From: Clostridia bacterium
Lineage (GTDB): Bacteria > Bacillota > Clostridia > Lachnospirales > JAOARL01
Length of the DNA: 64,000 nt
Reading direction: 5' to 3'
Assembly (NCBI GenBank): GCA_025210555.1
Contig: JAOARL010000020.1
Location: 5,265-69,264 of the forward strand
Below the pieces are notes generated by a model, which saw only the letters and a list, made by a program, of their open reading frames with translations, searched no databases and was not told where the DNA came from. Positions 22,327-22,458 of this stretch are shown here, in pieces. The position numbers were made by a program, and so were the translations under genes. Numbering within the stretch: the stretch's first letter is position 1; each line of letters starts with the position of its first letter.

Positions 22327-22343
22327 ATTACATGTATGTTACA
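22327..22343 (-). promoter_or_regulatory. perfect WalR box (TGTAAC-ATACA-TGTAAT on minus strand), 4 nt upstream of S-layer P1 -35
   Basis: attacatgtatgttaca; matches TGTWAH-N5-TGTWAH in both halves. Confidence 0.55.
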
Positions 22344-22347
22344 GGAC

Positions 22348-22376
22348 TTGAAATGTAGATATACATAAGATATAAT
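22348..22376 (+). promoter_or_regulatory. S-layer gene promoter P1 (TTGAAA-17-TATAAT)
   Basis: TTGAAA 22348-22353, TATAAT 22371-22376. Confidence 0.6.
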
Positions 22377-22407
22377 GGTTTCAACATCAAAAAAGTCACG
22401 TTTTAAT

Positions 22408-22424
22408 ATTACATTAATATTACA
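22408..22424 (-). promoter_or_regulatory. perfect WalR box (TGTAAT-ATTAA-TGTAAT on minus strand), 4 nt upstream of S-layer P2 -35
   Basis: attacattaatattaca; matches TGTWAH-N5-TGTWAH in both halves. Confidence 0.55.
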
Positions 22425-22428
22425 TCGA

Positions 22429-22458
22429 TTGACTTAATAAGATGTAGGGTGATATAAT
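22429..22458 (+). promoter_or_regulatory. S-layer gene promoter P2 (TTGACT-18-TATAAT)
   Basis: TTGACT 22429-22434, TATAAT 22453-22458; leaves an ~80-nt leader with small hairpins (aaccagcaatggtt, aaccaaagatggtt). Confidence 0.6.

Follow-up and report, generated by a model that had tools for sequence, protein, structure and literature searches.

Here, we describe a surface-layer (S-layer)-type gene in a 64-kb stretch of DNA (the window, by which we mean the whole stretch that was analysed) from the metagenome-assembled genome (MAG) of an uncultured "Clostridia bacterium", 64 kb of the MAG being covered. Each of the two tandem promoters predicted upstream of this gene (P1 and P2) carries a perfect match to TGTWAH-N5-TGTWAH, the consensus of the response regulator WalR (YycF), ending 4 nucleotides (nt) before the -35 hexamer, which suggests that the gene is a direct target of the essential cell-wall two-component system WalRK. 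Phosphorylated WalR (WalR~P) would bind each 17-bp box as a head-to-tail dimer and, at each box (centre about -48), would recruit or stabilise sigma-A RNA polymerase at P1 and P2, so that S-layer transcription would track WalK signalling and hence the growth and turnover of peptidoglycan; with a site on each of the tandem promoters, no WalR-independent bypass would be left. We give a probability of about 0.68 to this reading, in which WalR~P dimers activate P1 and P2 and couple S-layer synthesis to wall growth. The proposal that the gene is a direct WalR target through a box-promoter module present twice passes all the computational tests run and can be regarded as partly supported; we infer that WalR rather than a paralogue is the binder, that activation is the effect and that both promoters fire.

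Both boxes read on the minus strand as perfect consensus matches. Box 1 (ATTACATGTATGTTACA on the plus strand, TGTAACATACATGTAAT on the minus strand) has an imperfect third half-site, TTTAGA, beside it at 22316-22321, and box 2 (ATTACATTAATATTACA on the plus strand, TGTAATATTAATGTAAT on the minus strand) lies not only upstream of P2 but also at about +26 to +42 of P1. The intergenic region 5' of the gene measures 293 nt and is laid out in the order box 1-P1-box 2-P2-leader, so that each box sits upstream of the predicted -35 of its own promoter. Promoters and transcription start sites (TSSs) in the window are consensus predictions; P1 and P2 each match the sigma-A consensus at 11 of 12 positions, as do 15 sites in all on both strands of the 64 kb, and P2 has an extended -10 (TGaTATAAT). 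An initial annotation of this DNA, made from the letters, had reported the two boxes, their 4-nt gaps and the two sigma-A promoters with TATAAT elements, and every coordinate was confirmed. It had also called the module duplicated; the box-plus-promoter unit does occur twice, but the P1 and P2 modules are alike only over the 21 nt of the box plus 4 nt, which rules out a recent duplication of the whole promoter.

The boxes exceed chance expectation and are confined to non-coding DNA. In a gene model built from long open reading frames (ORFs), 6118 nt of the window (9.6%) are non-coding. The perfect pattern gives six matches at five sites, as compared with 1.33 expected from shuffles of the whole window. 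All six lie in non-coding DNA, where 0.16 were expected (2000 dinucleotide shuffles per intergenic segment, of which none reached six and the maximum was three), and the Poisson probability of at least five sites is about 9e-7; coding DNA, on the other hand, holds no perfect match versus about 1.0 expected. When one mismatch is allowed, the density is 3.1 per kb in intergenic versus 0.22 per kb in coding DNA. The initial annotation had estimated about 2 chance matches per window and about 0.2 in intergenic DNA and had counted five boxes in promoter regions, all of which proved accurate, and the comparison of promoter with coding frequency that it had called for, run here on the window, found the motif to be commoner in intergenic DNA. 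The distance to the promoter is also recurrent. In a scan for a box (at most one mismatch) followed by a gap of 0-22 nt, a -35, 16-18 nt and a -10, four modules were found at a gap of 4 nt and none or one at each other gap, and in 150 local-composition shuffles no gap collected more than two. The four modules belong to P1 and P2 of the S-layer gene, to the walR promoter and to the promoter of an HTH_3/Peptidase_M78 gene; they differ outside the functional positions, even the S-layer pair having only its 21 nt in common, and this dissimilarity points toward selection on the layout rather than recent copying.

Similar boxes recur upstream of SLH genes in other genomes. A genome scan seeded by the S-layer alignment, through the generic SLH peptide G[YF][EDP]DGTF[KRA]P, yielded 80 loci; these are mixed N-terminal-SLH proteins from several phyla rather than orthologues, the window's own genome is not among them, and they were used as a wide panel that brings its own negative controls. 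With the upstream region taken as 300 nt plus 30 nt into the gene (n=82), 20 perfect matches were found in 15 of the 82 regions versus 0.22 expected, a density of 0.74 per kb, 19-fold that of the remaining sequence of these loci (0.039 per kb), and a box was present in 3 of 169 other non-ORF segments (Fisher p = 6.5e-6). By the taxon counts, which were taken from record titles, the 15 positive loci all fall within the 54 from Clostridia or unclassified Bacillota, with none among 13 Bacilli and none among 13 from other phyla. Only two of the 15 are redundant (DNA-related pairs L006/L011 and L017/L048), a further DNA-related pair, L002/L004, consisting of homologues with one-mismatch boxes. When the spacer was varied from 0 to 23, the counts peaked at N5, with 15 sense plus 5 antisense matches versus 0-4 per strand elsewhere. 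In loci with a recognisable strong promoter, sense boxes end 14-15 nt before the -35 in nine cases, and in one three-half-site array (L009) the outer of two overlapping boxes ends 26 nt before the -35. Gaps of 4, 14-15 and 26 nt form an 11-nt ladder, which would place the site on the same helical face in each case.

Among six further full-length homologues, fetched independently, four have perfect boxes: at a gap of 14 nt in L166, at a gap of 4 nt as in the window in L167, where a box-less promoter lies upstream, at a gap of 15 nt in L170 (Clostridiaceae bacterium M8S5, complete genome CP118523.1), and within an upstream region of 64% G+C in L171. Clostridiaceae bacterium M8S5 and Petrocella sp. 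FN5 are named strains with the same architecture. The region upstream of the gene in L167 (330-705) has tandem promoters, the distal one being TTGACA-17-TATAAT and box-less, with two more one-mismatch boxes in between, and the corresponding interval of L170 (330-705) has an antisense three-half-site array further upstream and a perfect box inside the 5' leader, a set of sites that suggests a possible combination of activation and attenuation. The three closest S-layer homologues of the window gene (33-35% identity) contain no perfect box; they carry one-mismatch boxes with a 15-nt gap to the -35 and same-strand TTAC(A/G) half-site arrays in 11-nt phasing that end 15 nt before TTGACA/T. The conservation check proposed in the initial annotation was thus answered in two ways, the perfect box being absent from the three closest homologues and present in 15 of 82 SLH regions and four of six further homologues; the N5-specific spacing and the helical phasing are conserved, as expected of a WalR operator. 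The leaders of the three closest homologues open with GTAAGTGG(G/A)A just past the -10 (L002 2437-2465, L004 1157-1185 and L005 2425-2445), a motif that is not obvious in the leader of the window gene.

The window also encodes a cognate WalR with a recognition helix of a characterised type. In the PDB, the five top matches to its DNA-binding domain are WalR/VicR/YycF without exception, and its recognition helix, GDVRTVDVTVRRLREK, recurs unchanged in YycF of B. subtilis (2d1v) and VicR of E. faecalis (2hwv) and differs from that of S. aureus WalR (2zxj) by one conservative residue; because the recognition helix is unchanged, the published consensus should be transferable to this protein. The best NCBIfam match of the adjoining kinase is HK_WalK, at 432.7 bits versus a cut-off of 725. 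Of the walRK-yycHI operon that had been placed about 15 kb downstream, walR was found 14.6 kb from the start of the S-layer gene, but yycHI lacks similarity support: neither YycH nor YycI was detected in the 146-, 444- and 274-aa proteins encoded after walK in searches of Pfam (E up to 10), NCBIfam and PDB sequences, and the assignment of these genes as YycH/YycI is unsupported. The three proteins match no family; sizes of 444 and 274 aa are reminiscent of YycH and YycI, without sequence similarity, and all three may be unrecognised WalK accessory proteins. The box directly after walK overlaps the -35 position of an extended -10 promoter (TGtTATAAT, 39625-39633) ahead of the 146-aa gene. L086 and L099, the closest two by WalR among the relatives whose sequence extends that far, have this layout as well, which links this box type to the wal locus. 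Both relatives are distant (L086 5075-5643 and L099 3790-3960, as compared with 39584-42220 in the window), and the ORF after the box in L086 is again 146 aa long. walR has its own promoter behind a terminator at 37053-37079 (region 37053-37162), and the module in front of it was an unexpected observation without conservation in relatives: the box upstream of walR is absent in relatives at up to 67% WalR identity, and the module is lineage-specific or recent.

Table 1. Features of the S-layer locus, the wal locus and the other box-bearing promoters, in coordinates of the 64-kb window; promoters, TSSs and terminators are predictions.
Feature	Position	Strand	Description
Hairpin terminator of upstream small Zn-ribbon gene	22251..22309	+	19-nt arms, 95% complementary
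Candidate WalR box 1	22327..22343	-	TGTAAC-ATACA-TGTAAT, perfect; about -56 to -40 of P1
Promoter P1	22348..22376	+	TTGAAA 22348-22353, 17 nt, TATAAT 22371-22376; predicted TSS about 22383
Candidate WalR box 2	22408..22424	-	TGTAAT-ATTAA-TGTAAT, perfect; about -57 to -41 of P2
Promoter P2	22429..22458	+	TTGACT 22429-22434, 18 nt, TATAAT 22453-22458; predicted TSS about 22465
5' leader (about 80 nt)	22465..22543	+	5'-terminal hairpin; strong ribosome-binding site (RBS) GAAGGAGGA
S-layer-type gene	22544..25732	+	1062 aa, signal peptide, N-terminal SLH region
Intrinsic terminator ending the S-layer unit	25744..25771	+	3' of the S-layer-type gene
Module at HTH_3/Peptidase_M78 gene	30345..30394	+	GTTACAaaacaATTGCA (1 mismatch), 4 nt, TTGAAT, 17 nt, TATACT
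Three boxes at LysM-G5-Peptidase_M23 gene (32426-33988)	32252..32386	-	two perfect, one with 1 mismatch
Module at walR	37088..37137	+	GTTACAaagaaGTTACC (1 mismatch), 4 nt, TTTACT, 17 nt, TATAAT
walR (yycF), proposed regulator	37163..37858	+	NCBIfam YycF equivalog, 345.1 bits versus cut-off 340
walK-like histidine kinase	37871..39583	+	HAMP, PAS, HisKA, HATPase
Box after walK	39601..39618	both	TGTAAC-ATTGC-TGTAAC, matches both strands; directly after walK

The proposed target has the properties of an SLH-anchored S-layer protein. Its start codon is the ATG at 22544, and the product has a signal peptide (N-terminus MNKFRRIMASMLAVAMMFSTSASA followed by M, with cleavage between ASA and M), an SLH match (1.8e-28) that covers two stretches near the N-terminus, an isoelectric point of 4.05 and no Cys. 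The gene thus combines the typical properties of a subunit gene, that is, a large, acidic, Cys-free product, strong expression signals and a transcription unit of its own. The hairpin terminator upstream, whose inner hairpin was picked up by the terminator scan, insulates the gene from upstream transcription. The leader is predicted to fold (22465-22560) at -17.1 kcal/mol (z = -2.35), and a search against Rfam matched no family, so that no known RNA element was found in it. Taken together, these predicted features are hallmarks of an S-layer subunit gene. That it is the major one is plausible, although four other SLH proteins are encoded in the window. The five SLH-domain proteins are clustered at 10500-30324 (starts 10500, 14048, 20020, 22544 and 29128), alongside Big_5 proteins and an S41 protease of the CtpA-like type with a peptidoglycan-binding domain, and among the five genes WalR boxes are present only at that starting at 22544 and at none of the other four. 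The neighbourhood as a whole is rich in envelope genes, including a Mur ligase, Ddl, a glutamate racemase-type protein, the CtpA-like protease, an M23 hydrolase, walRK and murA.

Several observations weigh against direct activation of the S-layer gene by WalR. The three closest S-layer homologues have one-mismatch boxes only, 67 of the 82 SLH upstream regions have no perfect box and Bacilli have none, the kinase does not reach the WalK cut-off, and neither YycH nor YycI can be detected. In addition, OmpR-family paralogues can share TTACA-type half-sites, and box 2, lying downstream of the P1 start, could hinder P1 transcripts, which makes the net effect on P1 uncertain. The first of these two concerns leads to the strongest rival explanation, although we consider it unlikely: the boxes may be bound by another regulator of the OmpR/PhoB family, either PhoP-like or a lineage-specific paralogue, in which case control of the S-layer gene would not depend on WalRK. 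Direct repeats phased at 11 bp are a general trait of the family; in B. subtilis, the PhoP box TT(A/T/C)ACA overlaps the WalR consensus when TGTWAH is read as its reverse complement; and the window contains a second OmpR-type regulator/kinase pair (59167-61154). However, the window encodes no OmpR-type regulator besides WalR and the regulator of this pair (59167-59844), and the latter is an unlikely binder of the boxes: it shares only 43% identity with WalR, its recognition helix (GETRVIDDLVKRLRKK) is not that of WalR, and it reaches no NCBIfam equivalog cut-off. Moreover, nine of the ten half-sites of perfect boxes begin with A or G and not with the T preferred by PhoP, the same box type follows walK in the window and in relatives and lies upstream of walR in the window, and the geometry equals that of validated WalR promoters.

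The concern over box 2 can be taken further, to the somewhat less probable reading that WalR does bind but that box 2 blocks or attenuates P1 while activating P2, giving a promoter switch or net repression. In S. aureus, negative regulation is associated with sites that lie between the promoter elements or downstream of them (PMC10746227), the M23 gene of the window has such a downstream box, and L170 has its perfect box inside the leader. On the other hand, each box stands in the exact activating geometry for its own promoter, and a single box-plus-promoter unit is the rule in relatives. Response-regulator roadblocks are, moreover, usually weak. It is quite improbable that the repeats merely reflect promoter architecture, either as UP-element-like A+T-rich DNA or as extra -35-like hexamers (TTTACA, GTTACA) of overlapping weak promoters. 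It is true that the boxes lie where an UP element would be expected (-40 to -60), that DTWACA is similar to the -35 consensus, and that close to the M23 gene the promoter scan reports GTTACA and TTTACA as weak -35s; yet the spacer optimum at N5 is sharp, the C and G positions are kept across unrelated lineages, the phasing is to the real -35 at 4, 15 and 26 nt, L171 keeps a perfect box within 64% G+C, and other strong promoters of the window have no boxes. The UP-element reading was rejected on the grounds of N5 specificity, phasing and statistics. Finally, chance matching in A+T-rich intergenic DNA, for which the low G+C content of the window (29%) and of its intergenic DNA (26.5%) could be invoked, is already refuted at the level of sequence statistics by the counts given above, with the composite module and the cross-genome enrichment also speaking against it, and is barely worth entertaining.

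The remaining boxes of the window are found at two further genes. At the LysM-G5-Peptidase_M23 gene (32226-33988 with its upstream region), a perfect box (32252-32268) abuts the upstream terminator, a one-mismatch box (32319-32335) overlaps the -35 TTTACA and a second perfect box (32370-32386) lies just 3' of the -10; because boxes lie over the -35 and 3' of the -10, this placement would, by the published S. aureus positional rule, predict repression. The HTH_3/Peptidase_M78 gene (30345-31602 with its module) encodes a 386-aa ImmA/IrrE-like fusion and would be an unexpected candidate WalR target. As regards the other genes of the region, the one that follows the S-layer terminator (25866-27014) gives a Pfam OEP match (TolC-like outer-membrane efflux protein; 2e-18, two stretches), which is odd for a presumed single-membrane Clostridia genome, and the precomputed annotation of the product lists no family. 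An IS110-family transposase (27304-28500) lies about 1.6 kb 3' of the S-layer gene, and another IS110 transposase adjoins the S-layer homologue of L004 (4530-5783). Toxin-antitoxin-like features are interspersed among the envelope genes, namely a nucleotidyltransferase/HepT pair (13342-14066), a SocA/Panacea antitoxin-domain gene (18930-19394) and a Gp49-like/HTH pair (34073-34717), and a T-box leader (52371-52597; Rfam RF00230, 116.6 bits) precedes the gene at 52632-53642.

From a physiological point of view, an open question is how bacteria match S-layer production to the growth of the wall beneath it, the S-layer protein often being the most abundant protein of the cell, and this question was stated as the motivation of a study of WalRK in C. 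difficile (PMC9210968). If our reading is correct, an essential wall-homeostasis sensor would directly set S-layer transcription, and the WalR regulon would reach past hydrolases to the major structural surface protein. In the lineage of the window, the circuit would be reinforced by the presence of the module on both S-layer promoters and on walR, which would predict positive autoregulation of walR, reported to be absent from other Firmicutes. At about even odds, a WalR box in helical phase with the -35 (4, 14-15 or 26 nt) would be a widespread and possibly ancestral feature of SLH S-layer promoters in Clostridia, with WalRK acting as a general device that couples the most abundant surface protein to peptidoglycan growth.

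WalR-activated promoters of S. aureus are among the closest known counterparts of the architecture described here. In this species, activation is associated with WalR sites that lie upstream of the -35 (P<0.001), whatever their orientation, whereas repression is associated with sites that lie between the promoter elements or downstream of them (PMC10746227). Two reverse ("Rev") sites listed there have the same 4-nt gap, at SAUSA300_2503 (log2 fold change 3.09; ...ATAACA-AAAG-[-35]) and at SAUSA300_0651 (log2 fold change 1.68; ATTACAAGATAATAACA-AAAC-[-35]) (PMC10746227, Table S4), and isaA and ssaA have two WalR sites per regulatory region (PMC10746227). The window promoters thus resemble those of SAUSA300_2503 and SAUSA300_0651, both positively regulated, in having a 17-bp direct repeat in reverse orientation 4 nt before the -35, but differ from them in that the whole box-promoter unit is present twice in tandem and in that both -35s are near-consensus, whereas those of S. 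aureus are poor (CCGACA, CACACA). The S. aureus targets are, moreover, autolysin-type and other genes, whereas the gene of the window is predicted to encode an S-layer subunit.

A more general parallel is provided by the pho boxes of PhoB/PhoP, where OmpR-family dimers occupy direct repeats in 11-bp phasing beside or in place of the -35. The box after walK overlaps the -35 position in the manner of a pho box. Pho boxes differ, however, in their half-site (TT(A/T/C)ACA for B. subtilis PhoP) and in their poor -35, as opposed to the near-consensus -35s of the window. With respect to the expression of S-layer genes, Lactobacillus slpA and the Brevibacillus cwp operon reach very high expression through several strong sigma-A promoters, a structured 5' leader of considerable length and a strong RBS, and the window gene is similar to them in its tandem strong promoters, structured leader and strong RBS. 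A response-regulator site on every promoter, however, is to our knowledge not described for Lactobacillus slpA or Brevibacillus cwp.

The initial annotation knew of no S-layer genes described as WalR targets; such a link has, however, been published for C. difficile and suggested for B. anthracis (PMC9210968), and in the literature on WalR/YycF together with S-layer or SLH proteins we found nothing beyond these two reports. In C. difficile, cwp2, 5, 12, 16, 17 and 66 are up in the Wal-ON condition (WalR overproduced), putative sites being listed for cwp2 (reverse, one mismatch) and for cwp12, and the hydrolase gene cd630_27680, which has two perfect reverse sites, is repressed in Wal-ON (PMC9210968). 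The wal operon of this species is walA-walR-walK-truA2, its WalK has no cytoplasmic PAS domain and it is reported not to be autoregulated (PMC9210968), whereas walR of the window carries the module. In both cases, a WalR from Clostridia would have S-layer-associated genes in its regulon, and the M23 gene of the window resembles cd630_27680 in its two perfect sites. On the other hand, the C. difficile genes encode accessory Cwp proteins of the CWB2 type, slpA not being listed, and the sites of these genes are imperfect, and that study did not analyse where they lie with respect to promoters, whereas the window gene is of the SLH type and its boxes are perfect. For B. anthracis, whose S-layer is of the SLH type, a role of WalRK in regulating an S-layer gene has been suggested (Dhiman et al. 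2014, FEBS Open Bio 4:65, as cited in PMC9210968); a review of the B. anthracis envelope does not mention WalR, and none of the 13 Bacilli loci of our comparative set has a perfect box. The S-layer gene of the window would therefore be a further member of the known WalR regulon, and the link between WalR and the S-layer is not in itself unprecedented; what is new is that each of the tandem promoters of the presumed main SLH-type gene bears a perfect box, that the geometry is fixed and that such boxes recur in phase across Clostridia.

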